Positions 3,410 to 60,075 of a stretch of DNA of 64,000 bases are shown piece by piece. The DNA is taken from positions 1,667,744-1,731,743 of the forward strand of contig JALOBK010000001.1 in the NCBI GenBank assembly GCA_023228325.1, written 5' to 3'. The position numbers were made by a program, and so were the translations under genes. The notes beneath the pieces are model-generated. The model was given only the letters and a program-made list of their open reading frames with translations, did no database searches and was not told where the DNA came from. Source of the DNA: a bacterium (lineage in GTDB: Bacteria; Auribacterota; UBA6266). Position 1 is the stretch's first letter. Each line of letters begins with the position of its first letter.

Positions 3410-6028
3410 TTGAAATTAATCACAACCCATTTGAATGCCGATTTTGATGCGTTTGCTTCTTTGATCGCGGCTTTCAAATTATATCCTGACGCGGAAATAC
3501 TGCTGCCGTCTTCTCTTGACCCGAATGTTGAAGCATTTCTGAACGCTTGTTCTGACAGCCTGAATATTCCGCTTGAGCCTGAAGTAAATGTCGAGGATAT
3601 CAAACAGGTTATACTGGTGGATTCCGCTCCCGGAAGACGGATAGGAGATGTCTATAACTGGATAATATCGGGTAAAATACCGGTTATTGTTTATGACCAC
3701 CATAAAATAAAGAAAAAGGAGTGTAATGCAAAATACCATTATTTTCCCTTTGGCGCCACTGTTACGGGGTTATGCCTTGAAATCATGAGAAAAAAGATAA
3801 AATTAAGTGTGACAGAAGCCACAGCGATGCTTCTTGGCATTTATGAGGATACAGGACATTTCAGTTACCTTTCCACAACACCTGAGGATTTTCGGGTTGC
3901 GGCTTTTCTCGTTTCAAGCGGAGCCGATATATCCATGGTGCATTCTTTTCTGGGTTCCGAGCTTGATTCGGCCCAGACAATGCTTTTAAAGGAACTTATA
4001 AGCGGTTCCGAAGAATTTACATTGGGTAATTTCCATATCAATATCGCGTCCGCTTCAATAAATGAACATGTCGCGAATTTAGGCCTTGTTGTCCACAGGC
4101 TTCGTGATATAGAGAATATAAATGTGATATTCGCCTTAATAGAAATGGATAACAGGATACATATAGTCGCCAGGAGCAACGTATCAGTGGTAAACGTTGC
4201 CGGAATACTGGAAAAATTAGGGGGAGGAGGTCACCCCACAGCGGCTTCTGTTACTTTAAAGAAAGTTATGCTGGTGGAAGCCAAGGAAAAACTTAAAAAA
4301 GCGGTTGCGGGAGAATTATCTCTGCCTGTAAAAGCGGGGGATATCATGCAGAGATATATAAAAAAGGTAAGCCCTCAATCCAGCGTCGAAAAAGCAAAAG
4401 AATTAATGGTGAGAAACTCAATGGATGAGATACCTGTTGTCCGGAGAGGAAGATTTATCGGTTTTCTTTCAAGACATGATGCCGATAAAGTAATTTTACA
4501 TGGCTTAAAGAACAGCAGTGTTGCCGATTATATGACACCTGAAAACCGCGCCGTTGCTGAAAATGCCACCGTTACCGAGATGAAAGATTATATGTTTAAA
4601 AACAGACATTCGGTTATTCCCGTTGCCGACAACAGGTCCAGGCTTGCGGGATTAATACTGAAAAACGATTTGTTGAAAATATTGCATGAAGAAGATTCGG
4701 GTTATTGTCTGCCTGTTGAAGCCGGGATAACACCGTCTTTAAGCGATATCAGGGACAGGATTGAAAATATCCCGGCCGCCGATATTAAAAAGATACTGCG
4801 TGAAGCGGGCCGCATTGCGGATGAAATGAAGTGCAATGCCTATATTGTGGGGGGCATTGTCAGGGATATCCTTTTGAAAGTCCCGAATTATGATGTGGAC
4901 ATTGTCATTGAGGATAAAGGGATAGAATTCGCGTCCCGGCTGGCGAAAAAACTGGGAGGATACTCTGTCCCTCATAAAAAATTTCTGACATCCATAGTTG
5001 CGCTTCCTTCCGGAATGAAGATAGATGTAGCGACCGCGAGAACTGAATATTATGAAAAACCGGGCGCTTTGCCGAAAATTGAATACAGTTCCATAAAAAG
5101 CGACCTGTACAGGCGCGATTTTACCATTAATGCGATGGCGGTGAAAATCAATGAAAACGGTTTTGGCCGGCTGATAGATTTTTTCGGCGGAAGAAAAGAC
5201 CTCAGGGATAAAGTGATAAGGGTAATGCATAATTTAAGTTTTGTGGATGATCCCACAAGGATATTCAGGGCAGTGAGGTTTGAACAGAGGCTGGGGTTCG
5301 GGATAGATAAACATACACAGAACCTTATAAGAAACGCGGTTGATATGAAGATGTTTGATAAAGTCGCGTATGACAGGGTAAAAAACGAAATTATTTTGAT
5401 GCTTAATGAGCCAAAGCCTCTTAACGCGATAAAAAAAATGGCGGCGTTCAATGAATTGAGGTTTATTCATCCGTCCATAAAATTCGACAGGAGAGCCGTA
5501 AATCTTTTTAGTAAAACGGAAGAAGCGCTGGCATGGTTTTCTTTTTCTCTCAATAAAAAAGAACCTTTTGCGCGGTGGCTCATCTATTTTATGGGTTTGA
5601 TAGACACCTTAAGCGTTTCCGAGACAACAGCTGTTTGCGACAGGTTTAAACTGTCTAAAAAATCGAAGGATAAAATATTAAGGTTTAAGAAAGAAGGAGG
5701 TGCAAGAATAAGATATCTGTCGCAGAAAAAAAGCCTGCTGAACAGCGAAATATATTTCAACCTGGCGGTTTATTCGATTGAATTTCTGCTTTTTCTGCTG
5801 GCAAAATCCGATACGGACACGGCAAAGCAGAGAATCATCAATTTTATCGAAAAACTCAGGAATGTAAAGCTGAGCATTACGGGAAAGACTCTGATAAAAA
5901 TGAACATTTCCCCGTCTCCTTATTTTAAAGAGGTTTTGGGGAAAATCCTGGAAGCTAAGCTTGATGGTAAACTCAGAACAAAAGAGGAAGAACTTCAATA
6001 CGCACTGAAACTCCTTAAGGAACGCTGA
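3410..6028 (+). CDS. multidomain protein: DHH/DHHA1 phosphoesterase + tandem CBS + poly(A) polymerase/CCA-adding nucleotidyltransferase head domain
   Basis: DHH motif (VIVYDHHK), a GGGH DHHA1-like motif and CBS pairs. It also has the nucleotidyltransferase head IVGGIVRDILLK...DVDIV...RRDFTINAMA typical of the tRNA nucleotidyltransferase/poly(A) polymerase family. TTG start. Confidence 0.75.
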   Translation: MKLITTHLNADFDAFASLIAAFKLYPDAEILLPSSLDPNVEAFLNACSDSLNIPLEPEVNVEDIKQVILVDSAPGRRIGDVYNWIISGKIPVIVYDHHKIKKKECNAKYHYFPFGATVTGLCLEIMRKKIKLSVTEATAMLLGIYEDTGHFSYLSTTPEDFRVAAFLVSSGADISMVHSFLGSELDSAQTMLLKELISGSEEFTLGNFHINIASASINEHVANLGLVVHRLRDIENINVIFALIEMDNRIHIVARSNVSVVNVAGILEKLGGGGHPTAASVTLKKVMLVEAKEKLKKAVAGELSLPVKAGDIMQRYIKKVSPQSSVEKAKELMVRNSMDEIPVVRRGRFIGFLSRHDADKVILHGLKNSSVADYMTPENRAVAENATVTEMKDYMFKNRHSVIPVADNRSRLAGLILKNDLLKILHEEDSGYCLPVEAGITPSLSDIRDRIENIPAADIKKILREAGRIADEMKCNAYIVGGIVRDILLKVPNYDVDIVIEDKGIEFASRLAKKLGGYSVPHKKFLTSIVALPSGMKIDVATARTEYYEKPGALPKIEYSSIKSDLYRRDFTINAMAVKINENGFGRLIDFFGGRKDLRDKVIRVMHNLSFVDDPTRIFRAVRFEQRLGFGIDKHTQNLIRNAVDMKMFDKVAYDRVKNEIILMLNEPKPLNAIKKMAAFNELRFIHPSIKFDRRAVNLFSKTEEALAWFSFSLNKKEPFARWLIYFMGLIDTLSVSETTAVCDRFKLSKKSKDKILRFKKEGGARIRYLSQKKSLLNSEIYFNLAVYSIEFLLFLLAKSDTDTAKQRIINFIEKLRNVKLSITGKTLIKMNISPSPYFKEVLGKILEAKLDGKLRTKEEELQYALKLLKER

Positions 6029-21606: not shown

Positions 21607-22827
21607 GTGAATATTACGGAACAGTTAAAAATCTTATGCGGCGGGGTTGAAGAAATAATACCCGAAGCGGAATTCAAAAACAAACTTGAAAAGTCCGCTT
21701 CCACAGGTAAACCGCTGAGGATAAAATGCGGAATTGACCCCACGAAACCCGATGTGCATATCGGACACCTTGTCCCTTACAGAAAGATGAGGCAGTTTCA
21801 GGATTTAGGGCATACAGGTGTTGTGATAATAGGTGATTACACCGCTTCGATCGGGGATCCTACCGGAAAATCCGAAGAGAGACCTCATCTTACACCGGAA
21901 GAAGCTAAAAGAAACGCTGAAAAATATCTCGAACAGTTATATAAAATTCTGGATCCGGAAAAAACAAAAGTTCATTTTAACGGCGAATGGTTTTCAAAAT
22001 TTTCCTTTAAAGATGTACTGGGCCTTGCGAGTAAAGTTACATTTGCGCAGATAATGGCCCATGAAACTTTCAGGACGAGATATGAAAAGGGAGAGCCGCT
22101 CTCTATGCATGAACTTATGTATCCCCTTCTCCAGGGATATGATTCCGTTGAAATAAACGCGGATGTTGAATTAGGCGCTACTGAACAGAAATTCAATATT
22201 CTTATGGGTCGGGAATTACAGAGAGCTTTCGGAAAAGAACCTCAGGTCGCGATGCTGTTTCCTATTCTTACAGGCATAGACGGAATAAATAAAATGTCAA
22301 AATCCTTGGGTAATTACATCGGTTTGAATGACAAGCCGGATGATATTTTCGGCAAAGTCATGAGCATACCCGACAGCGCAATCATAAATTTTGTTGTTTA
22401 CGGAACATCCACAGGACAGGATTTTGCCGATAAAGCAAAAAACCATCTTAAATCCGGTAAAAATCCGAGAGATTTGAAACTTGAACTTGCGGAAATAATC
22501 GTGAAAGAACTATCTTCCGGGGATGATGCCGTTAAAGCGCGTGAAAATTTTCTTAATACTTTCAGCAGGAAAACAGGCCCGGCGGAAGAGCTTATTCAGA
22601 CAATCAGCATAAAACCGGGAAAATACTGGGCAGTGAAACTGCTCGTCGATAACGGCTGCGCTAAAAGCAACGGAGAAGCCCGGAGACTAATTGAGCAAGG
22701 CGGGTTTGCAATCGGAGATGTAAAGATAGACGATGTTGATTTGGAAGTGAATGTGCCGGAAGACACAGACGGTAAATTGCTGAAAATAGGGAAAAAGAAA
22801 TTCGCGCGCATTGTTGCCAAAAAATAA
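21607..22827 (+). CDS. tyrS: tyrosine--tRNA ligase
   Basis: HIGH motif (PDVHIGHLVP), KMSKS, and a C-terminal S4 domain (ARRLIEQGGFAIGDVKIDD). GTG start. Confidence 0.85.
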   Translation: MNITEQLKILCGGVEEIIPEAEFKNKLEKSASTGKPLRIKCGIDPTKPDVHIGHLVPYRKMRQFQDLGHTGVVIIGDYTASIGDPTGKSEERPHLTPEEAKRNAEKYLEQLYKILDPEKTKVHFNGEWFSKFSFKDVLGLASKVTFAQIMAHETFRTRYEKGEPLSMHELMYPLLQGYDSVEINADVELGATEQKFNILMGRELQRAFGKEPQVAMLFPILTGIDGINKMSKSLGNYIGLNDKPDDIFGKVMSIPDSAIINFVVYGTSTGQDFADKAKNHLKSGKNPRDLKLELAEIIVKELSSGDDAVKARENFLNTFSRKTGPAEELIQTISIKPGKYWAVKLLVDNGCAKSNGEARRLIEQGGFAIGDVKIDDVDLEVNVPEDTDGKLLKIGKKKFARIVAKK

Positions 22828-22850
22828 TTTATATTTTTTGTAGAAAAAAG

Positions 22851-22879
22851 TTGACATAGCTTTTCAGTTTTAATATTAT
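22851..22879 (+). promoter_or_regulatory. rRNA operon promoter P1 (sigma70-like)
   Basis: TTGACA (22851-56), a 17-nt spacer, then TATTAT (22874-79), with an AT-rich UP-like region upstream. Confidence 0.55.
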
Positions 22880-22954
22880 GGTCGCCGTGCTCTTTATAAT
22901 GTAAATAGAAAAATAGCGGTTTTTATCGTGTAAAATAAATATTTGTAAAAGGTA

Positions 22955-22982
22955 TTGACAAATAGAGATTTCAGAGTATATT
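22955..22982 (+). promoter_or_regulatory. rRNA operon promoter P2 (sigma70-like)
   Basis: TTGACA (22955-60), a 16-nt spacer, then TATATT. Confidence 0.5.
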
Positions 22983-23175
22983 TGTTAAAGGCAAGAGCAA
23001 GCTAATATCTTTTATTAAAATTTTGTTATTTGATAAAGTGACAGCTTTCAGGTTGTCACTTTTTTCTGCGGTTTTTCTGCTCTTTGAAATTTGAATAGTA
23101 TGATGTGAATTGTGCAAGGTGCTTCTGTTTATTTAAGAAATACCTGATACTTTTAAGTGTCAGGTTCAAGCTTTT

Positions 23176-24738
<1,563 letters not shown>

Positions 24739-24947
24739 TAAGGAGTAACCGCCTGCAATGGATTTATTCATTATAGGTAATGATTTTCGACCTGTAAAAA
24801 GGCGAAAATCTGGTAGGTCGGTAGCACTTGCACAAACATCATACTATTCAGGTTTTAAAGAGCTTGTTCTTTTAAGATTTTTTAAAATGGTTGGTTCACG
24901 AAAGGACAACGGACCTTGCAGTTGGCCAATTCGCGACCTTAATTGGA

Positions 24948-25024
24948 GGGCCTATAGCTCAGTTGGTTAGAGCGCAGCCCTGATAAGGCTGAGGTCGGTA
25001 GTTCGACTCTACCTGGGCCCACCA
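24948..25024 (+). tRNA. tRNA-Ile (anticodon GAT)
   Basis: GGGCCTATAGCTCAGTTGGTTAGAGCGCAGCCCTGATAAGGCTGAGGTCGGTAGTTCGACTCTACCTGGGCCCACCA. Cloverleaf with a CTGATAA anticodon loop and an encoded CCA. Confidence 0.95.
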
Positions 25025-25046
25025 CCAACAAAAATTTTGTTTAAAA

Positions 25047-25130
25047 ATTCGAAATACAAATATCGAAACGAAAAGTAAAGTATTGAATTTGAATATTGTT
25101 TTGGATTTCGAAATTATAATTTAGGATTTT
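25047..25130. repeat. AT-rich intergenic repeat element (TTCGAAATAC / TTTGAATATTG / TTAGGATTT blocks), copy in the tRNA-Ile/tRNA-Ala spacer
   Basis: Shares ordered blocks with 12393-12520. Partial matches occur at 6041-6068 and 14781-14850 (see findings). Confidence 0.7.
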
Positions 25131-25219
25131 ATTTTTTTTGATCTTTTTGATTTTTTATAAAGCACTGGAAGGGTATTTGCCCTTACTTTCCGGCTTCCTT
25201 AATAAAGGAAGATAATTGT

Positions 25220-25295
25220 GGGGTAGTAGCTCATCTGGTAGAGCGCCGCCCTTGCAAGGCGGAGGTAAGGGGTTCGAGTCCCCTCTACTCCACCA
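25220..25295 (+). tRNA. tRNA-Ala (anticodon TGC)
   Basis: GGGGTAGTAGCTCATCTGGTAGAGCGCCGCCCTTGCAAGGCGGAGGTAAGGGGTTCGAGTCCCCTCTACTCCACCA. The G3:U70 alanine identity pair is present, and CCA is encoded. Confidence 0.95.
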
Positions 25296-26024
25296 GTGAA
25301 CCGTCGCTCCGAAAGAAGGTTCAGGTTAAGGTTGAGGGAAATAGGTTTTAATATTAAGTTAAGATTGAGAATGAATCTCGGTTTTAACTTAATATTAAAA
25401 GCTGAAAAAACAGAGCTTTTATTTGTTCTTTGACAACTGAATATCAGTAACAATAGAGAACTGCTGCAACAATTGAGCAATATAGGATTCTTTAAGGTCA
25501 AGCTATTAAGGGTATGCAGTGGATGCCTTGGCATCGTTAGGCGATGAAGGACGTGGTAAGCTGCGAAAAGCTTCGGGGAGGCGCAAACTGCCGTTAATCC
25601 GGAGATGTCCGAATGGGGAAACCTATTTCAGGTAATACTGAAATACCTTGTGCTGAATACATAGGCACAAGGAGCGAAACTGGGAAAACTGAAACATCTA
25701 AGTAACCCAAGGAAAAGAAAACGATAGTGATTTCCTGAGTAGTGGCGAGCGAAACGGAAAAAATTTGCCTAAACCTGATAAGTGTCAAGCCGGCAGGCGT
25801 TGCTTATCGGGTGTCGCGGGATCCAATGATTTCAATCTGCCGATTGGAAGAGAAGTTACAAATCTGTTTTTTAGCGGAATAGTCTGGAAAGTCTTCCCAT
25901 AGAAGGTGAAAGGCCTGTACGCGAAAAGAAGCAGACTTCTTATTTGGATTCCCGAGTACTGTCAGACACGTGGAACCTGGCAGGAATTTGCCCCGACCAC
26001 GGGGTAAGGCTAAATACTAAACGA

Positions 26025-26071
<47 letters not shown>

Positions 26072-27421
26072 TGTTAGGGGAGTGAAATAGTACCTGAAAC
26101 TGTATACTTACAAACCGTCGGAGGCCTATGCTTCGGTTATCCGAAGAACGGCTGACGGCGTGCCTTTTGCATAATGATCCGGCGAGTTTATTCTATGCGG
26201 CAAGGTTAATCCTTTAAGGGAGAAGCCGTAGCGAAAGCGAGTGCTAAACGCGCGATTAGTCGCATGGATAAGACCCGAAGCCAAGTGATCTATCCATGGC
26301 CAGGTTGAAGCCTCGGTAACTCGAGGTGGAGGACCGAACTAGTGAGTGTTGAAAAACTCTTGGATGAGCTGTGGATAGGGGTGAAAGGCTAATCAAACTT
26401 GGAGATAGCTGGTTCTCCCCGAAATATATTGAGGTATAGCCTCGTGTAATAGTTACTGGGGGTAGAGCACTGGATGGGCTAGGGGTCTTACCGGACTTCC
26501 AAAACCAACCAACCTCCGAATACCAGTAACCGTATCACGGGAGGCAGACTGCGGGTGATAAGGTCCGTGGTCGAGAGGGAAAGAGCCCAGATCGCAGGTT
26601 AAGGTCCCTAAATTTACGCTAAGTGAGAAAGGAAGTGAAATCTCTAGAACAGCTGGGATGTTGGCTTAGAGGCAGCCATCATTTAAAAAGTGCGTAACAG
26701 CTTACCAGTCGAGAGGTTTTGCGCCGAAAATAATCGGGGCTAAGCGTAATACCGAAGCCGCGGATTTATCCCGCCCTCGGGCGGGGTAAGTGGTAGGGGA
26801 GCGTTCTATACGGATTGAAGGCATACCGGAAGGAGTGCTGGACTGTATAGAAGTGATTATGCCGGAATGAGTAGCGATAAGGTGTGTGAGAATCACACCC
26901 GCCGTAAACCCAAGGTTTCCTGGGGAAGGTTCGTCCGCCCAGGGTTAGTCAGGACCTAAGGCGAGGCCGAAAGGCGTAGTCGATGGACAACAGGTTAATA
27001 TTCCTGTACTGTCTTGGTGAGTGATGGAGTGACGCAGTAGGCTAAGTGGGCCTTGTGCTGGATATCAAGGTCTAAGCGAGTAGGGGGATTGATAGGCAAA
27101 TCCGTCAATCATTACCCTGAGAAGCGACGGGACACGGAGTCTTCGGACGAAGTGGATTCACTGACGCCACACTGACAAGAAAAACTTCTAAACTTATTGC
27201 CAGGATACCTGTACCGTAAACCGACTCAGGTGGGTGAGGAGAGAATCCTAAGGCGTGCGAGAGAACTCTCGTTAAGGAACTCGGCAAATTAACCCCGTAA
27301 CTTAGGGAAAAGGGGTGCCTTAACCCGTGATGTAATTAACTTGCAAAAGCGGGATAAGGTCGCAGTGAAATGGCCCAGGCGACTGTTTATCAAAAACACA
27401 CGACTCTGCTAAAGCGCAAGC

Positions 27422-27454
<33 letters not shown>

Positions 27455-27515
27455 AAAGGTTAAGGGAAAGAGTTATGTCCGACTTGTCGGACAGAAGCTT
27501 AGAACCGAAGCCCCA

Positions 27516-27572
<57 letters not shown>

Positions 27573-28108
27573 ATTCCGACCTGCACGAATGGTGTAACGA
27601 TCTGGGCACTGTCTCAACGAGGGACTCGGCGAAATTGTAGTGGCGGTGAAGATGCCGCTTGCCCGCGGCTAGACGGGAAGACCCCGTGAACCTTTACTGT
27701 ACCCTGATATTGGATTTTGGTATGACTTGTGTAGCATAGGTGGGAGGCTTTGAAGTCCCGGCGTCAGCCGGGATGGAGCCGTCAGTGAAATACCACTCTG
27801 GTTATGTTGAAATTCTAACTGTATGCCGTGAATCCGGCTGCAGGACATTGTCAGGCGGGCAGTTTGACTGGGGCGGTTTCCTCCCGAAGCGTAACGGAGG
27901 AGCACGAAGGTTACCTCAGCACGGTTGGCAATCGTGCGACGAGTGTAAAGGCATAAGGTAGCTTAACTGCGAGACAGACAAGTCGAGCAGATACGAAAGT
28001 AGGTCTTAGTGATCCGGCGGTAGAATGTGGAATTGCCGTCGCTCATCGGACAAAAGGTACTCCGGGGATAACAGGCTTATCGCTCCCGATAGTTCATATA
28101 GACGGAGC

Positions 28109-28167
<59 letters not shown>

Positions 28168-28224
28168 TAGTTGTTCACTAATTAAAGCGGTACGTGAGCT
28201 GGGTTCAGAACGTCGTGAGACAGT

Positions 28225-28978
28225 AAGGATCTTGCTGTCTATAAACTTGACTGTATGCTGGAAAAGCCGGCGTATTTAAAACTACCGTGATATCCTTTAT
28301 TATGGTAAAAATGTTTTAATGCGGCTAACCAGCAGGAAACATAGGGCGGGCAAAGTATGGATAACAATTACATCTCAGGGTTTGTTGATGGAGAAGGAAC
28401 GTTTCATATCTGCTTTCAACGTAGATCTGATTTGAAATATAATTGGCAGGTAGTTCCCGAATTTCATATTAACCAAAACGGGACGAGCAAAAATGTGCTC
28501 GAGAAAATAAGGAATATTCTTGATTGTGGTTATATAAAAAGAAATGACGGGAAAAGCGAAAAAGACAAAACCCTGGTGTATGTGGTTAGAAGAAAAAAGG
28601 ATCTTCTTGAAAAAGTTATTCCATTCTTTGAGAAATATCCATTGTGGACCGAAAAACGCAATGATTTTCTGAAATTTAAAGAAGTTCTAAAGATGATGGA
28701 TAAAGACCAACATCTTGTTGATAAAGGTTTCAGAAAAATTGTAGACATTGCTTTTTCAATGAACGCAGAGGGTATTTACCGCAGGATAAAAAAAGAACAG
28801 ATTTTATCCACTTATGGATCCTCAGAGACTATACGTCAGGCAACCTGAAAATTCAGGTTAAAGATATAGTCCGAACTGCATAGCGATATGCAGAGGTAAT
28901 TTGAAAAGATTACCCGCCTTTTCGGGAGTTTATGGAAGAGGTTAGTATCCCGTTAGTTCGGGAGAAAGTAACAGAATG
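28225..28978 (+). mobile_element. group I intron in 23S rRNA at the E. coli 2593-equivalent site (the I-CreI-type homing site)
   Basis: The exon junction GAACGTCGTGAGACAGT|...|TCGGTCCCTATCTACCGTGGGCG is continuous with the conserved 23S sequence. U at -1, omega-G at 28978, and the group I S element AAGATATAGTCCG at about 28860. Confidence 0.85.
28357..28848 (+). CDS. LAGLIDADG homing endonuclease (single-motif, homodimeric type, I-CreI-like)
   Basis: N-terminal ISGFVDGEGTF LAGLIDADG motif, a length of 163 aa, and location inside a group I intron at the I-CreI target site. Confidence 0.85.
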   Translation: MDNNYISGFVDGEGTFHICFQRRSDLKYNWQVVPEFHINQNGTSKNVLEKIRNILDCGYIKRNDGKSEKDKTLVYVVRRKKDLLEKVIPFFEKYPLWTEKRNDFLKFKEVLKMMDKDQHLVDKGFRKIVDIAFSMNAEGIYRRIKKEQILSTYGSSETIRQAT

Positions 28979-29111
28979 TCGGTCCCTATCTACCGTGGGC
29001 GTAGGAAGTTTGAGGGTGACCAGTCCTTAGTACGAGAGGACCGGGATTGACGTACCAATGGTGTTCCGGTTGTTCCGCCAGGAGCATAGCCGGGTAGCTA
29101 AGTACGGAATG

Positions 29112-29142
<31 letters not shown>

Positions 29143-29376
29143 CATCCCCAAGATAAGACTTCCCAATCAGGCTCCTTGTAGACTACAAGGTTGATAGGCC
29201 AGGTGTGTAAGTCCAGTAATGGATTTAGCTAACTGGTACTAATAAGCTGATCGGCTTGACCATTTACAAACTATATTGGTTGATATTGTTTGCTGCAGTC
29301 CTCATAAAAGATATTCAGTGTTTTTGTGAGGAGTGTTGCGGGTTTACCCGCAACCTCCTCATAGTCAATAATTTTT

Positions 29377-29493
29377 CCCGGTGACAAAATAGAGAGGTGG
29401 CAACACCCGATCCCATTCCGAACTCGGCCGTTAAGCACCTCATCGCCGATGGTACTGCGATCACACACGTGGGAGAGTAGGTCGTTGCCGGGG
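29377..29493 (+). rRNA. rrf: 5S ribosomal RNA
   Basis: CCGAACTCGGCCGTTAAGC, GCCGATGGTACTG and TGGGAGAGTAGGTCG blocks. The terminal helix pairs CCCGG with CCGGG. Ends are placed to within about 3 nt. Confidence 0.8.
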
Positions 29494-29503
29494 TAAATAT
29501 TCT

Positions 29504-29537
29504 AAAAGAGGGGTTAATTTAACCCCTCTTTTTTTGT
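29504..29537 (+). terminator. rho-independent terminator of the rRNA operon
   Basis: AAAAGAGGGGTTAA-T-TTAACCCCTCTTTTTTT, a near-perfect palindrome plus a T-run. Confidence 0.85.
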
Positions 29538-29573
29538 TGCAAAAAACCCGCGGATATGTGAAATTATCTAAAT

Positions 29574-30956
29574 ATGAAACGTGTTTATATAAATATATTA
29601 TTTTTTATCTGTTCTGCCTGCCTGTCTCAGTTGTCTTACTCGGCCGCAAAAAAACCGTTTGACCTGCCCGGATGGGTATTAATCTGGAATGATGAATTCG
29701 AAGAATCCGAACTGAATTTGTCAAAATGGCGTGTTTCCGATACTGCTCCGGTAAAGAATAAAGAGCTTGAGTATTATACACCCGATGATGTTTATCTTGA
29801 AAACGGGTGCCTGATATTGAGAAGCCAGAAACGGGATATGGGAGGAAGAGAATACACTTCAGGGCATGTCGATACAAAACTGAAATTTGCCACAACATAC
29901 GGCAGGATAGAAACACGCGCTAAATTGCCGGGCGGACAGGGGATATGGCCCGCGCACTGGATGCTTCCCGTAAAAGGGGGATGGCCTCCCGAGATTGATA
30001 TCATGGAGTTGCTCGGACACGCTCCCGACAGGGTTTATATGACGCTTCACTGGGGTCATTGGCCTAACAATCAGCATGCGGGAAAATCTTTCAAAGGCCC
30101 TGATTTCACAAATGGTTTCCACACTTTCGCTGTGGAATGGGAACCGGATGAAATAAGGTGGTATGTAGATGATGTGCTGAAATATACAGCCGTAAAAAAT
30201 ATTCCCCGGGAACCTTTTTATATAATTTTGAATACCGCCGTCGGAGGCGACTGGCCGGGTAATCCAAACAGCAAAACCAGATTTCCCCAGCACCATTATA
30301 TTGATTATGTAAGAGTGTATATCAAAGATATAAAGGGGACCTCTTATCTTTATATTACCGCTGAAAACGGGAAAATCGAGTGCACGCCCTATAAAGAGAG
30401 GTATAAAACAGGGGAAACAGTGAACCTGTTTGCAAAACCGGATCTTTGTTATAGGTTCAGCCGATGGGAAGGGGATGCTTCCGGGAAAAATAATCCTCTG
30501 CGGTTAAAAATGGACAGCCATAAGAAAATACAGGCTGTATTTGAACCGGACCCTGAAGGACCTAAAGTCATATCCAAAGGTAAAAAAACAAAATCTTCTT
30601 CGCTGGAATCGCCCGCGCTGGATGACAGATACGCGGTTGACGGAGATAAGGAAACAAGATGGTCATCAGCATGGTCAGACCCTCAGTGGATAAAAATAGA
30701 CCTTGGTGATATCTGTAAAATTATCGGAGTGAAACTTTATTGGGAAACCGCATATGCCAGGGCGTATGATGTGCAGGTGTCCATTGACGGAGTGGAATGG
30801 AAAACGGTTTATTCACAGAAATCTTCGGGGGGCGATATCGAAAGCATAGGAGATATAAATATAGAAGCCAGATATATCAGAGTTTTCGGTAAAAAGAGGG
30901 CAACCGATTACGGATATTCTCTCTGGGAAATAGAAGTGTTCGGAGAGAAAAAGTAG
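29574..30956 (+). CDS. secreted glycoside hydrolase family 16 (laminarinase-like beta-glucanase) with C-terminal F5/8 type C (discoidin) carbohydrate-binding domain
   Basis: Signal peptide, the GH16 catalytic motif EIDIME (ExDxxE), and a C-terminal discoidin-type region (AWSDPQWIKIDLG...YDVQVSIDGVEW). Confidence 0.8.
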   Translation: MKRVYINILFFICSACLSQLSYSAAKKPFDLPGWVLIWNDEFEESELNLSKWRVSDTAPVKNKELEYYTPDDVYLENGCLILRSQKRDMGGREYTSGHVDTKLKFATTYGRIETRAKLPGGQGIWPAHWMLPVKGGWPPEIDIMELLGHAPDRVYMTLHWGHWPNNQHAGKSFKGPDFTNGFHTFAVEWEPDEIRWYVDDVLKYTAVKNIPREPFYIILNTAVGGDWPGNPNSKTRFPQHHYIDYVRVYIKDIKGTSYLYITAENGKIECTPYKERYKTGETVNLFAKPDLCYRFSRWEGDASGKNNPLRLKMDSHKKIQAVFEPDPEGPKVISKGKKTKSSSLESPALDDRYAVDGDKETRWSSAWSDPQWIKIDLGDICKIIGVKLYWETAYARAYDVQVSIDGVEWKTVYSQKSSGGDIESIGDINIEARYIRVFGKKRATDYGYSLWEIEVFGEKK

Positions 30957-33991: not shown

Positions 33992-34125
33992 GGTGAGGCC
34001 TCCTTTTTACTCTTAGACTTTATTATACTACAAAGTGTTCAAATTATATCAGGGATAAATCCTGCGGTGTCATAAAATATTTGCTTTACAATGAAAGAAT
34101 TTTGATTTAAATTGATTTAATGAAT

Positions 34126-34250
34126 AAGGGGGAGCGTTAGCTGAGATCTTTCCTTTCAGGAAAGGAACCCCATGAACCTGGTCAGGGTAATGCCTGCGGA
34201 GGGAAATGGTTGAACAGAGACCTACCCGTATGCGGGTGGGTTTTTTTATG
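34126..34250 (+). promoter_or_regulatory. TPP (THI-box) riboswitch with terminator-type expression platform
   Basis: GCTGAGA ... ACCTGGTCAGGGTAATGCCTGCGGAGGGAA matches the THI-element consensus (CUGAGA, ACCUGAUCUGGAUAAUGCCAGCGUAGGGAA). It is followed by a hairpin plus T7 and lies upstream of thi4. Confidence 0.8.
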
Positions 34251-34365: not shown

Positions 34366-35148
34366 ATGAAATTGGATGAAGTTACTGTAACAAGAGCGAT
34401 TCTAGACTCTTATTTCGGCAAATTAAAAGACTATTCGGATACGGATGTTGTAATAGCGGGAGGCGGACCTGCGGGTATCTGCGCCGGATATTATCTCGCT
34501 AAAAAAGGCATTAAAGTTGCTTTATTTGAGAGGAAGCTTTCCGTTGGCGGCGGGATGTGGGGCGGCGGAATGATGTTTAACAGCATTGTCGTCCAGCAGG
34601 AGGGGAAGGAAATCTTAGATGCATTTTCAATAGGTTCCGATGAATATGAAAGCGGTTATTATACCTCCGATTCAATCGAAGCCGTGACAGCGCTGACTTA
34701 TAAAGCGGTAAAGGCGGGGCTTAAGATATTTAACTGTATGAGCGTTGAAGATGTGATGATAGATGAAAAAGAGAACATAACGGGAGTTGTCATAAACTGG
34801 TCGCCTGTTGAAATCGCAAATCTCCATGTTGACCCTCTTTGTATAAGGTCCAAATATATCATTGAAGCGACAGGGCATCCCTGTGAAGTGGCGAAAGTCA
34901 TAGTAAGAAAAGTCGGGAAAAAACTTTTCACGAAAACAGGCGATTTGATGGGCGAAGGCTCGATGAACGCGGAAGCGGGCGAGAAAGCAATCCTTGAGAA
35001 CACAAAAGAGTTTTATAAAAACGCGTATGTTGCGGGAATGTCCTGCAACGCGGTTTTCGGCGCTCCCAGGATGGGCCCTGTGTTCGGCGGGATGCTCCTT
35101 TCCGGAAAAAAAGTCGCCGAAATAATAGCGTCTAAACTGGGGAAATAA
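34366..35148 (+). CDS. thi4: thiazole synthase Thi4 family (sulfide-dependent thiazole biosynthesis)
   Basis: FAD-binding [18 protein letters not shown] and conserved Thi4 GGGMWGGGM motifs. Downstream of the TPP riboswitch. Confidence 0.85.
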
Positions 35149-55733: not shown

Positions 55734-56326
55734 TGGAAACTTTAAGAAAAGACCATCAGATAATCGCTTCGTTGATTGATAAGGGGAGCAAAGTCCTTGA
55801 CCTTGGCTGCGGGGACGGGTCTCTGCTAAAAAAACTTTCCGAGTTGAAAAACGCGAGCATCCAGGGCGTGGAAATCGACCCCGACAAGATAAAGGAATGT
55901 TCCAAGGCCGGTGTTCCCGTAATCCATACCGATATCGATGAAGGGCTTTCCGATTATCCCGATAAATCGTATGATTTTGTCATATGTTCCCAGACTCTCC
56001 AGGCTGTGCATAAGCCCAAAAAAGTCCTTGATGAAATATTGAGAGTCGGCAAAAAGGGTATAGTCATTTTCCCCAATTTCGGCCATTGGAAAATACGCAG
56101 AATGCTGTTTTTCGGCGGGATAATGCCCCGGTCGAACGAACTGCCTTACAACTGGTATGATTCTCCCAATATCCATCATCTGACTATCAAGGATTTTAAG
56201 AAATTCTGCGGGAACGAAGGTATTGCCATAGAAAGAGAATATTGTTTCAGGTCTCTGAATCAGGAAAGGTCAGGCCTTTTTCCGAACCTTCTTTGCAGGT
56301 TTGGGATGTTTGTGATATCCAGATAG
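55733..56326 (+). CDS. metW: methionine biosynthesis protein MetW
   Basis: Matches MetW (DHQIIASLIDKGSKVLDLGCGDGSLL). Start overlaps the metX stop. Confidence 0.8.
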   Translation: METLRKDHQIIASLIDKGSKVLDLGCGDGSLLKKLSELKNASIQGVEIDPDKIKECSKAGVPVIHTDIDEGLSDYPDKSYDFVICSQTLQAVHKPKKVLDEILRVGKKGIVIFPNFGHWKIRRMLFFGGIMPRSNELPYNWYDSPNIHHLTIKDFKKFCGNEGIAIEREYCFRSLNQERSGLFPNLLCRFGMFVISR

Positions 56327-56506
56327 GAAATGGCACTTTTTCGCAATCTTTTCGTCAGCCTTCAAAAATCCTTGTGCGTTCCGCCGTTGGCGGGACTCCA
56401 ATGCAGTCCTGAAAGAAATATTCGCCTTCCTTGACCTTGCAGAAAAATTACTCATTTTCGGGAGTGGTGGTAGGGTATCGGTGATAAAAGATTCGTTTAA
56501 TTCCTA

Positions 56507-57100
56507 TTATTTTATAAATGGAAAAAGTTTTATTTCTTCGTTATCAACGTTTCTAAGTCTGATTGCTAATTCTTCTCCATCTTTCATTTTTCCTAAGAAA
56601 ACTACACCATTTAAAAGTCCATTTGGGGGGATTCTTTCATCTTTAATTTCTTTATACATATAATCATCTTCCATCCGCTGATTTGCCTTTGAAGATCCAA
56701 CACCATCAACTACAGCAGGAATTAAGAAAGGCCATATGAATACGCCAGCAACACCATAGGCAGTTGCTCTGCCGGCAGTGCTGAAACCACATTCATTTGC
56801 AACTTCCTCGGCAGGAACGGTATCTTTATTTAACATTCTTTTTTTAAATTCATATGTATTGGCCGTTCTGTTATCAATGAGGATGTATACAGGTTGATAA
56901 ACTCTGTATAATTTTTTGACACCAAAAACCTGTTTTGATTCTTTTGCATCAAAAAATTTTGCAGCTACCTTTAATCCATCTTGATCTTGGGCAGTGCTAT
57001 AAGAAGCAATATCTGAAGTAGGCAATCTTCCTGCACGATAACTTGCACAGCCGCTGATAATAGAACATAATAATAAAAGCAAAAACGAATGCTTCCTCAT
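56507..57100 (-). CDS. hypothetical lipoprotein (AT-rich islet)
   Basis: Signal peptide with lipobox IISGC. Visibly lower GC than flanking genes. Confidence 0.45.
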   Translation of the reverse strand: MRKHSFLLLLLCSIISGCASYRAGRLPTSDIASYSTAQDQDGLKVAAKFFDAKESKQVFGVKKLYRVYQPVYILIDNRTANTYEFKKRMLNKDTVPAEEVANECGFSTAGRATAYGVAGVFIWPFLIPAVVDGVGSSKANQRMEDDYMYKEIKDERIPPNGLLNGVVFLGKMKDGEELAIRLRNVDNEEIKLFPFIK

Positions 57101-57486
57101 AATCCCCCCTCTTTAAAACTAAAATGAGTATTGCATAAAGATGGTAATCTTCCATTAATGGAATGTCAATGAAATTTAAAATAGTAATTTCTTGGTATGC
57201 AGATAGTTATGTAATATAAATTTGTTAAAACAAATAAAAAGATTAAAAAAATGTGATAGAAATAAGCAAAGCTTTCCAAACTGGAACCTTATCTGAGAAG
57301 AAAAACTTAAAATTTTTCTGAATCTGAAATAAAGAGGTTGGTTAATTCATTTGAGGTTTAGAGTGCCGGTGATTAGGGTTGTATTATTGGGGGGATCAAA
57401 CTATAATAAATCAACTAACTGAAAGAAAAAAGTATCCAGAGTTTTTCCTATCCATAAAAAAGGGTAAAAGATATTTTTGGGTGATA

Positions 57487-58119
57487 ATGAATCTGAAATG
57501 CAAGATATTAAAACACCTCTTTTTTGTCTTAGTTATTTTTTATCCATATCTTCCTAATCTACAAGCAGAAACACATCAATTCGTGATAATAAGTTCCGAA
57601 GCTCCTGCAACTATAAGAGAATTGCCAAACGGAAGAGATTCTTTAGGGAAAATACCCCCAGGTAAAAAAGTAGAAATCTTCGAAGAAAAAACTGTAAGAA
57701 GCGGGCCTTTACTTGTTATTTGGTATAAAGTAAAAGCTAAAGGGAAATATGGATGGATTAGTCAATATGTGACTGAAGGGAATAAAATAATTGAAGATAC
57801 TGATAAGGTTGCAAGTGAGATAAAACGAATCCCTGGCGCGGATAAAGTGAGAGAAGGGCCATTTGGTGAAGAAGCCAAAAATAATTTTAAAGACTGGCTT
57901 TTAAATACTGGCGATGTAAAGTGGGTAAGATTAAAAAATGATTATAAAATCTATGTAAGACTTGATTCTTCTAAATATACATCAATTCATAATGTCAAAA
58001 ATATTGCCGCATATATAGCAAATGCTTACAGGAAACAAACCAATTACCAAAAGCCTATAGAGGTAATAGTTTTGGGGTCTAATAACGCAAAGATTTGGGC
58101 GGAATATAGATTGCCTTGA
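57487..58119 (+). CDS. secreted protein with bacterial SH3-like domain (AT-rich islet)
   Basis: Signal peptide from ATG 57487. GKKVEIFEEK...WYKVKAKGKYGWISQYV resembles SH3b. Confidence 0.4.
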   Translation: MNLKCKILKHLFFVLVIFYPYLPNLQAETHQFVIISSEAPATIRELPNGRDSLGKIPPGKKVEIFEEKTVRSGPLLVIWYKVKAKGKYGWISQYVTEGNKIIEDTDKVASEIKRIPGADKVREGPFGEEAKNNFKDWLLNTGDVKWVRLKNDYKIYVRLDSSKYTSIHNVKNIAAYIANAYRKQTNYQKPIEVIVLGSNNAKIWAEYRLP

Positions 58120-58180
58120 AAAATAGACTTAATTTTTTGACATTTGATATTAAAACAAGCATACGAATATTTTTAGAGAA

Positions 58181-59602
58181 ATGAGAATTACAGAATTTAC
58201 CAATCCGATAGAGTTCCAACGTTTTTGTTCACTGCTATTTTCGGCAGAAGATCATAATTTTCAAAGCATAGATGATAGCGGTGGTGATTTGGGGATAGAT
58301 GGATATATTGCTGATAGTAGAATATTTATGATTTATTGTCCTGAAAAACCGCAGAAAAATAATGACTCAAAAAATAAATCAAAAATTTCAAGTGATATTA
58401 AAAAAGCAGTCAAAACCATAAAATCTAAGAACTTGTCGGTTAATACACTAGTTTTTGTTACACCGATGAATTTGAGAACAGAAGTCATTTTGTATCTTGA
58501 AAAAGAAGCGTCGAACTATGGTTTTAAAAGCGTTTCTTATGGAGAGGATAAATTAACCGAATTAGCTGCCAAACATCCACACATTGTAAAACAATTTCCA
58601 TTGATGATTTTTCCAGATATAGAAGCAAAGATAGATAAGGTAAGGGAAAAAATGGATATTCGTTTTGATTGTTTAGAGAGATTAATCAATCCAGCGTTCC
58701 ATGATAAAAAGGGAGAAAAAAGTGTTTTTGTCATTGAGCCTCGTTTAGAAAAAGCTCTAAAAAGTTATGAAGATGGCGATGTTGATAAAGCCGTAACAAT
58801 ATCACGGGAAGTATATTATGAAACTTCCAATGACAGAGTTAAATTGCAAGCCATTATAAATATTGTAACAGGCCATTATGGATTGCGGGAGAATGTATCC
58901 GAGTTAATTCCAATGTGCGATGAGGGTATTAAGATAGCTGAAAAAGTTAAAAATCAATTAGCTAGATTGTCATTAATGGCACAAAAAGCTTTGCTGCTCT
59001 CTGATGAAAGAGATTTCTTATTATTAGATCGATACTTTATAGAACAAGTAGCTTATAAAACTGGCATTTTTAATGAAGCAGAGTATGAACATATAAATAA
59101 AAAAATTGGGAAAAATCAAGAAGATATTGAAAGTATATTACGAACTGTGATTGAAGATTCTCGTGCAAAAAAAATGTATAAGGCTTTAGCTAATATGTAT
59201 TTAATTAGTGGCTTAATGAATGCTAATAGTTATATTATTCTGGCGAAAACATATCCTGAAGTTGCAGGTTTTTGTGATAATAGATGTAAGACTGCTTTTA
59301 GTGAATCAAAAAAAATTTATGCTGCTCTAGGGGATGAAGAAGGAGTTGTTAATGTTACACATAATTTATCTAATCACTTGCGTTCAACGGGTGAGATAGA
59401 ATTAAGCAAGAAATATGCTAGAGAAGTTATTGCAAAAGCTAAAAGCAAAGGATATTTTTTGTTGGAACTTAAGGCATCGGAGTTATTATATGCATTGGAA
59501 CATACTACACCCGACTATTATAATATCCCACCGTCTCAATTCTTAGACAAGCTTAAGAAAAGAAGAGAGATGATATTAAAAAGTTTGAAAAATAAAAAGT
59601 AA
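58181..59602 (+). CDS. Mrr-like restriction-endonuclease-fold N-terminal domain fused to a large alpha-helical/TPR-like C-terminal domain (candidate defence or abortive-infection protein)
   Basis: N-terminal FQRFCSLLFSAEDHNFQSIDDSGGDLGIDGYIA...MIYCPEK parallels the Mrr_cat pattern FE.LV..LL...G......GDGGIDG...QCK. The C-terminal 300 aa are helical repeats. AT-rich codon usage. Confidence 0.45.
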   Translation: MRITEFTNPIEFQRFCSLLFSAEDHNFQSIDDSGGDLGIDGYIADSRIFMIYCPEKPQKNNDSKNKSKISSDIKKAVKTIKSKNLSVNTLVFVTPMNLRTEVILYLEKEASNYGFKSVSYGEDKLTELAAKHPHIVKQFPLMIFPDIEAKIDKVREKMDIRFDCLERLINPAFHDKKGEKSVFVIEPRLEKALKSYEDGDVDKAVTISREVYYETSNDRVKLQAIINIVTGHYGLRENVSELIPMCDEGIKIAEKVKNQLARLSLMAQKALLLSDERDFLLLDRYFIEQVAYKTGIFNEAEYEHINKKIGKNQEDIESILRTVIEDSRAKKMYKALANMYLISGLMNANSYIILAKTYPEVAGFCDNRCKTAFSESKKIYAALGDEEGVVNVTHNLSNHLRSTGEIELSKKYAREVIAKAKSKGYFLLELKASELLYALEHTTPDYYNIPPSQFLDKLKKRREMILKSLKNKK

Positions 59603-59824
59603 TCCTTAATAGTTAATACGAATTTTTGCTTGTTTTTTTGATTGTCATTATGTAAAATTCACTTCCTTAAGTTCCTGTTCTTTATAGACACAAATACGTA
59701 TGTAGTAAAAATTGTAGTAAAAGTTTGGCAAAACAGGGAATTTTGGGGAAGTGTTGGGAAATTGTAGAAGCCTTTAAAATTTGCTGTTTTACCGTCAATA
59801 AAATATAGTTCACGTCGTATCAAT

Positions 59825-59900
59825 GCCCCAATAGCTCAGTCGGCAGAGCAACTGACTCTTAATCAGTGGGTCCTAGGTTCGAGTCCTAGTTGGGGCACCA
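59825..59900 (+). tRNA. tRNA-Lys (anticodon CTT)
   Basis: GCCCCAATAGCTCAGTCGGCAGAGCAACTGACTCTTAATCAGTGGGTCCTAGGTTCGAGTCCTAGTTGGGGCACCA. Anticodon loop CTCTTAA, CCA encoded. Confidence 0.9.
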
Positions 59901-60075
59901 CTGAACCACACAGGGTTCAGTGCAAGCGCGAAACCACATAAAGTTTAGTGCAAGCGTTAGAAAAGGTTTCAAGGCATGTGTTTTTTTAATCCCCGCCTAA
60001 GGCGGGTAAATGTGTAAATCTGAGTTATCCCTGCCCGCCGAGGCTTTGTGGCGGGTGTGGTCAAAAATTAAAAGT

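Follow-up and report, generated by a model that had tools for sequence, protein, structure and literature searches.

A group I intron with a putative LAGLIDADG_1 homing endonuclease gene at position 2604 of the 23S rRNA gene of an Auribacterota bacterium

The intron-bearing rRNA operon

The window (the whole stretch of DNA that was analysed, 64,000 nt) carries an rRNA operon of the order 16S-tRNA-tRNA-23S-5S on its + strand, as delineated with Rfam. The 23S rRNA gene (25496-29263, +; LSU_rRNA_bacteria) is split by an insert of exactly 754 nt (28225-28978, +): the 5' exon (25496..28224) stops with ...GAACGTCGTGAGACAGT, its last base corresponding to E. coli U2604, and the 3' exon (28979..29263) begins with TCGGTCCCTATCTACCGTGGGCG, its first base corresponding to E. 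coli U2605. These junctions agree exactly with an earlier note on this DNA, according to which the gene breaks off at 28224 and resumes 754 nt later at 28979. The hallmarks listed in that note are all present in the sequence, i.e. a U at position -1 of the insert, a G as the final intron base (28978) and the S element AAGATATAGTCCG (28861-28873), and the 163-aa ORF with a single LAGLIDADG motif (ISGFVDGEG) that it described is intact at 28357-28848. The exon halves GAGACAGU and UCGGUCCC give GACAGUUCGGUC as the predicted ligated junction; the restored, intron-less site in the window exons reads ...GAACGTCGTGAGACAGTTCGGTCCCTATCTACC... and the intron-less target stretch is GGGTTCAGAACGTCGTGAGACAGTTCGGTCCCTATCTACCGTGGGCG.

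On the basis of the exon junctions, a match to Rfam Intron_gpI and covariation in 55 homologues, we are highly confident that the insert is a group I intron at L2604 (between E. coli positions 2604 and 2605) and that its P6 loop contains the gene of a LAGLIDADG_1 homing endonuclease with one domain. The exact window proteins in NCBI are MCK9555760-762, and since the proteins flanking the rRNA operon (window 21607-30956) bear the consecutive accessions MCK9555761 (TyrRS) and MCK9555762 (GH16), the endonuclease ORF is unannotated in the GenBank record. For annotation this means that the intron splits the 23S gene and that an ORF within it has been missed.

The window 23S rRNA also has about 79 extra nucleotides relative to E. 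coli after position ~278 (25779-25857). They fold into hairpins of unremarkable stability (z = -1.7) and probably represent a lineage-specific helix extension.

Fold of the ribozyme

Helices were paired by hand and homologues were then used for pair counts; 57 homologous introns were extracted from the fetched loci, and for 55 of these the 5' part of the ribozyme was joined to its 3' part before alignment. P1 (28218..28240) is evident from the sequence and pairs the 5' exon AGACAGU (28218-28224) with the guide GCUGUCU (28234-28240), leaving a U.G pair at the 5' splice site. As just 5 nt lie between P1 and P3, the intron has no P2. The 5' strand of P3, CUUGAC (28246-28251), has GUCAGG (28835-28840) as its covarying partner, and is followed by a P4-P5-P5a-P5'-P4' domain and the 5' strand of P6 (together 28256..28337), in which P4 is formed by UGCUGG with CCAGCA and P5 by GCCG with CGGC, plus a P5a hairpin; this part is drawn from the single-sequence fold, and covariation backs P5, P6 and the base of P5a. 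P6 pairs AGGA (28334-28337) with UCCU (28819-28822) and holds the endonuclease ORF in its loop. The 3' half of the core (28819..28871), assigned by covariation and sequence, continues from P6' with P7 GACUAUA (28827-28833), P3' (28835-28840), the P8 hairpin (28842-28859) and P7' UAUAGUC (28865-28871), and because there is just 1 nt on each side of P3', neither P7.1 nor P7.2 is present. Covariation and folding further support P9 (28876-28893, with a GCGA loop), P9.1 (28895-28914) and more 3' hairpins before the terminal G (28876..28978). A possible P10 strand, GGAUC (28227-28231), would pair with GGUCC of the 3' exon, and is weaker than, and one register off from, the GACCG/CGGUC pairing of several relatives.

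This fold is conserved among the homologues. In P3, 100% of cells are paired across the 55 introns, with at least three pair types at most positions and double-sided changes in five of the six pairs, and compensatory changes are clear in P5, P6, P7, P8 and P9. At the 5' splice site the U.G pair is found in 54 of the 55 aligned homologues, and the terminal G in all 57 extracted introns. A tool-made alignment of 20 diverse homologous introns (A2) has the U.G pair in 20/20, 97.8% of its cells paired and double-sided changes in 24 of 50 pairs; none of 500 shuffles reaches any of five measures, and sliding the partners by 1-3 columns reduces pairing to 28-41%. After deletion of the ORF, the window intron folds with z = -6.96 and every non-pseudoknotted helix is recovered (P1, P4-P6, P7, P8, P9). 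The earlier note had proposed a group I intron in the 23S gene of an uncultivated bacterial lineage and had let this depend on a P3-P7 core; such a core can be built, with the A2 pairing just given, and the proposal is borne out by the P1 and P3-P9 fold, the compensatory changes, the U.G pair and the terminal G.

The search with the Rfam model that the note had also suggested gave a divided result. Intron_gpI (RF00028) matches positions 28636-28893 with E 1.2e-9, and its 44.0 bits fall short of the gathering score, which is 50. Because the ORF splits the model, only the 3' core aligns well, with P7/P3'/P8/P7'/P9 in the good part of the alignment; the low score reflects how the model handles introns that contain an ORF and does not count against the fold.

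We find it hardly credible that the insert is something other than an intron, namely an expansion segment or intervening sequence whose endonuclease gene stands on its own, and that the mature rRNA either keeps it or loses it through RNase III cleavage with no ligation. Intervening sequences of this type are known from bacterial 23S genes, part of the insertions in CPR bacteria are not introns (PMC11270868), and the sub-threshold Rfam score would fit this reading. Against it, compensatory changes maintain P3, P5, P6, P7, P8 and P9, and both the U.G pair and the terminal G are conserved. Moreover, A2602 of the peptidyl-transferase loop is 2 nt away from the insertion, and from established knowledge the ribosome is unlikely to tolerate either a break or an insert of 754 nt at this place.

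Insertion site

The earlier note had placed the junction at position 2593, the site at which I-CreI and I-MsoI introns sit, which numbering on E. coli does not support. The reference was the E. coli rrl gene (L001 493-3396, 2904 nt), and the junction was placed by exact flanking motifs; a pairwise MAFFT alignment of the whole 23S gene with E. coli misplaced the intron. The motif GAACGTCGTGAGACAGTTCGGTCCCTATC starts at G2588 and the T of AACGT is T2593, and in the window the exon preceding the intron ends at T2604 and the one following it starts at T2605. Position 2593 (the T of AACGT|CGTG) thus lies 11 nt upstream of the intron, and no insert interrupts the window gene there. In LSU numbering the intron site of I-CreI and I-MsoI is n.2593, and positions +3 to +10 of the I-CreI target correspond to n.2599-2606 (PMC3315327). 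This puts the window insertion within the right half-site of that target, near +8/+9, and away from its intron insertion point. The I-CreI target spans 22 bp (about n.2586-2607) and includes the insertion point of the window intron, and both group I introns lie in the same domain V loop.

That the two sites are occupied by separate introns is evident from locus L003, where a single 23S gene carries one intron at 2593, following ...GGGTTCAGAACGT, and a second at 2604/2605, preceding TCGGTCCCTATC. The two are separated by the 11-nt exon CGTAAGACAGT. The ORF of the first intron shares 35% identity with I-CreI (E 7e-29), and that of the second (P0008) is 59% identical to the window ORF. Introns at L2593 and L2604 occur together in one 23S gene, with the same 11-nt exon between them, in three loci (L003, 3207-4698; L051; L074). 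In such genes each intron is expected to split the ~22-bp region that the enzyme of the other would recognise. It is possible that the second intron entered by co-conversion, through a tolerant half-site or by reverse splicing.

The partial 23S gene of L003:1-4994 (E. coli ~1819 to the 3' end) has six insertions in all, at ~1917/18, 1951, 2473, 2500-04, 2593 and 2604. Four of the six carry LAGLIDADG ORFs, three of the LAGLIDADG_1 and one of the LAGLIDADG_2 type.

The intron-encoded endonuclease

The ORF in the P6 loop (28357..28848, +; motif ISGFVDGEG at 28372-28398) encodes 163 aa with a single LAGLIDADG_1 domain, matched by Pfam PF00961 at residues 6-110 with 94.1 bits (cut-off 23.1; E 1.1e-26). 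An AlphaFold2 model based on 32 homologues has a pLDDT of 87.7 and a pTM of 0.83, and the order of its elements (H3-13, E14-22, E30-41, H42-55, E59-63, E72-77, H80-93) is that of the alpha-beta-beta-alpha-beta-beta-alpha LAGLIDADG core. Foldseek aligns the model to many LAGLIDADG structures in the PDB with probability 1.00, the top ones being I-TnaI, I-LtrI, I-SmaMI, I-OnuI and I-Vdi141I.

In an alignment of 32 homologues that includes the window sequence (A1), 16 positions are invariant, among them G8, G12, E13, G14, Q40 and K100. In the ungapped part of a BLASTP alignment, E13 stands opposite D20 and Q40 opposite Q47 of I-CreI, and in the alignment with I-LtrWI it is the Glu of an AEG motif that faces E13. 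The earlier note had asked whether the acidic residue of the I-CreI motif is kept; E13 occupies the D20 position and is invariant in the 32 homologues. Judged from these alignments, E13 is the putative catalytic residue and the active site looks intact.

Two further suggestions of the earlier note, that the enzyme is I-CreI-like and that, as a diverged I-CreI, it could cleave a variant of the I-CreI target, do not hold as statements of lineage. The window enzyme does resemble I-CreI in its length, its single motif (I-CreI and I-MsoI are single-motif enzymes of ~160 aa) and in giving a BLASTP alignment, and the introns share their rRNA neighbourhood and S-element sequence. Identity to I-CreI is 24% (pairwise BLASTP E 5e-8), compared with the 35% (E 7e-29) of the L2593 ORF in L003, which is the I-CreI-like one of the two, and I-CreI is not among the 60 best PDB sequence matches listed for the window enzyme. 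The best of these are both halves of I-LtrWI, I-SmaMI, I-LtrI and I-OnuI (E 2e-36 to 1e-27); the best single-domain match is I-TnaI (5gkk, E 7e-28), followed by I-Vdi141I (3e-13) and I-CeuI (4e-11). In addition, cyanobacterial L2593 introns are reported to have P2 and P7.1/P7.2 (PMC1995217), whereas the window intron lacks P2 and has no room for P7.1/P7.2. Together with the insertion at 2604 and the two separate introns of L003, this makes it highly improbable that the element belongs to the I-CreI/I-MsoI lineage at L2593. The window enzyme probably represents another lineage, with a target that overlaps part of the I-CreI site.

The nearest solved structure is that of I-TnaI (PDB 5gkk; Foldseek E 4e-15, TM 0.80/0.88, 35% identity), like the window enzyme a single-domain protein from a bacterial 23S intron. 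It comes from the L1931 intron of Thermotoga naphthophila (PMC1995217 Table 1), a different site and hence a different target. I-CeuI (L1923), which gives the weaker PDB match already mentioned, is also a single-domain LAGLIDADG_1 enzyme of an rRNA intron at a different site. In I-OnuI, I-LtrI, I-SmaMI and I-LtrWI, each half aligns with the whole window protein and shares with it the GxxDxEG motif with the catalytic Glu. Fungal mitochondrial meganucleases of the I-OnuI type are monomers of two fused domains, and the sites that they cut in mitochondrial genes are asymmetric. The window protein, unlike these, has one domain and would have to dimerise.

Coding sequence and ribozyme overlap at the 3' end of the ORF. 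The last ten codons, GSSETIRQAT, and the stop codon (28819-28848) double as P6'-J6/7-P7-P3'-P8, with the stop codon within P8, and SSETIR hardly varies among the members of the family, presumably because of the RNA constraint on the same stretch. Translation and ribozyme folding of one RNA should therefore exclude each other. Similar overlaps are known in cyanobacterial L1917 introns (PMC1995217).

Distribution of L2604 introns

Relatives were sought in one genome per GTDB species, and the best 80 of at least 544 were kept. By BLAST combined with motif mapping, 78 of the 82 fetched loci (L002-L083) have the ORF at 2604/2605, and the proteins of this L2604 family are 41-64% identical to the window enzyme. 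The four exceptions, with 40-43% identity, were placed by BLASTN against the E. coli 23S gene, three at L1923, the I-CeuI site (loci L075, L077 and L080; ORF 1501-~1975; 40-42% identity), and one at about L1951 (locus L083). The protein family is therefore not strictly confined to one site.

Among the best 80, carriers of L2604 introns comprise about 24 Actinomycetota, about 17 Patescibacteria, 11 Gammaproteobacteria/Pseudomonadota, 10 Omnitrophota, 5 Armatimonadota and 3 Acidobacteriota, with single cases in Planctomycetales, Dormibacteria and WS2, so that roughly three quarters are non-CPR. The closest enzymes (57-64% identity) come from metagenome contigs and from MAGs of Gammaproteobacteria and Armatimonadota, a pattern in agreement with the horizontal spread that such elements usually show.

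Neither the site nor its intron family is new, as both were catalogued in 2024 (PMC11270868). Tsurumaki et al. list 2604 among six 23S positions where insertions in CPR bacteria mostly encode LAGLIDADG_1 proteins (PMC11270868), and since the six correspond to 23IS6-8 and 12-14, position 2604 is '23IS13' (PMC11270868). The CPR (Patescibacteria) 23IS13 insertions share the position of the window intron and, like it, predominantly carry single-domain LAGLIDADG_1 ORFs in group-I-like introns (PMC11270868). Patescibacterial loci such as L010, L027 and L052 have the same intron core, with enzymes 45-50% identical to that of the window. By its site, its homologous core and its homologous LAGLIDADG_1 ORF, the window intron is a member of this L2604 (23IS13) family.

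Bacterial LSU intron sites known by 2007 were L1917, L1931, L1951 and L2593 (PMC1995217), and the 2024 study states that group I introns at 2604 were unreported in other bacteria, 23IS13 having been reported for CPR only (PMC11270868). The window host belongs to Auribacterota, of the PVC group, and not to CPR; its TyrRS, the one marker protein compared, is 90% identical to a protein named Candidatus Aureabacteria. With it, the hosts seen here include Auribacterota, Gammaproteobacteria, Actinomycetota, Acidobacteriota, Armatimonadota, Omnitrophota and Planctomycetota, i.e. they reach beyond the CPR-only distribution reported so far. The window intron thus adds a candidate phylum of the PVC group to the L2604 hosts and, together with the survey, indicates that site 2604 is widely used outside CPR; its own biological interest is modest. 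The enzyme tested in the 2024 study, I-ShaI, comes from 23IS7, another site (PMC11270868). Literature searches on L2604 and on I-TnaI (5GKK) returned nothing relevant, and no enzyme from the 2604 site appears to have been biochemically characterised.

Splicing, homing and possible decay

By analogy with known introns of this kind, the pre-23S rRNA would be expected to self-splice. Attack by guanosine after the U.G pair of P1 (AGACAGU/GCUGUCU) would start the reaction, and the freed 5' exon would then attack after the terminal G, restoring ...GACAGU-UCGGUC... of the peptidyl-transferase loop. The 163-aa protein would dimerise through its LAGLIDADG helix, the homodimer would cut intron-less 23S rDNA near 2604/2605, and repair from an intron-bearing copy would insert the intron. 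Dimerisation and homing are likewise predicted from related enzymes, and a homodimer that makes site-specific double-strand cuts with 4-nt 3' overhangs would be expected from the single-domain architecture.

In the 57 intron-bearing genes no variation occurs at exon bases 2598-2608 and 2610, and hardly any at 2609, which makes this stretch a good homing target. The two-fold symmetry of the intron-less site is weak; it holds at 5 of 11 positions when centred on 2604/2605, other centres score equally well or better, and the cut is not located by it. A broader reading, to which we give no more credence than to its contrary, is that the L2604 enzymes form a family of homodimeric meganucleases with a target of ~20-22 bp whose centre lies ~8-11 bp from that of I-CreI (the targets being partly shared), that they are single-domain bacterial counterparts of the two-domain I-OnuI scaffolds, and that the element moves among phyla that are very far apart and for the most part outside CPR. 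Scaffolds of the I-OnuI type are used in genome engineering, and the L2604 family offers many natural single-domain relatives of that scaffold at one invariant rDNA site, a resource rather than a surprise.

It is also conceivable, if unlikely, that the element is decaying, with a ribozyme that still splices because the host needs its 23S rRNA, an endonuclease that is inactive or serves just as a maturase, and vertical inheritance of the intron. Loss of the endonuclease after fixation is what the homing cycle predicts, and a loss at the N-terminus of the ORF is in fact seen. Many homologues begin with an ADNQQER extension, for which the P5'/P4'/P6 RNA serves as coding sequence. The corresponding frame of the window (28321-28359) gives AANQQET, followed by an in-frame TAG (28342-28344), and the ORF starts at ATG 28357. 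However, the three closest homologues (P0002, P0007 and P0020; 60-64% identity) start at this same methionine, the ORF is full length with a confident AlphaFold2 model, and all 16 invariant positions of A1 are kept, the last by construction given that A1 includes the window sequence.

The decay reading would also be in line with the scans for an intron-less allele. Two exact-pattern scans of metagenome contigs with the window-specific spliced junction found none, with patterns that were probably too specific, because exons of sister species differ in sequence. Contigs of close relatives (~93-95% nucleotide identity; L084, L085, L101-L105), reached through TyrRS and GH16, all break inside the rRNA operon. 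As no intron-less allele of the species or a sister species was recovered, present-day mobility is unsupported. Among viral contigs, considered as possible vectors, just relatives at ≤37% identity were found. An active homing endonuclease within a splicing group I intron nonetheless remains our preferred reading of the locus.

Other features of the window and its relatives

A TPP riboswitch (34118-34223, +; Rfam 56.5 bits, just over the gathering score) lies upstream of the ORF 34366-35148, whose counterpart in relatives has Thi4/FAD-binding Pfam matches. An 872-aa protein (3410-6028, +) gives a full-length match to the NCBIfam 'A-adding tRNA nucleotidyltransferase' of 699 bits, under the cut-off of 1440, together with weaker partial matches to NrnA/DHH-type and CBS-containing families. 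The stretch 56000-60000 has a GC content of 0.33-0.35, compared with ~0.42 elsewhere, adjoins a tRNA gene (59825-59897) and may be a foreign island. In one relative of ~95% nucleotide identity, the acyltransferase-rpsA interval (L084:3755-8064) contains a ParE toxin gene along with two genes for Y1 transposases of the IS200/IS605 type, in a stretch that does not align to the window.
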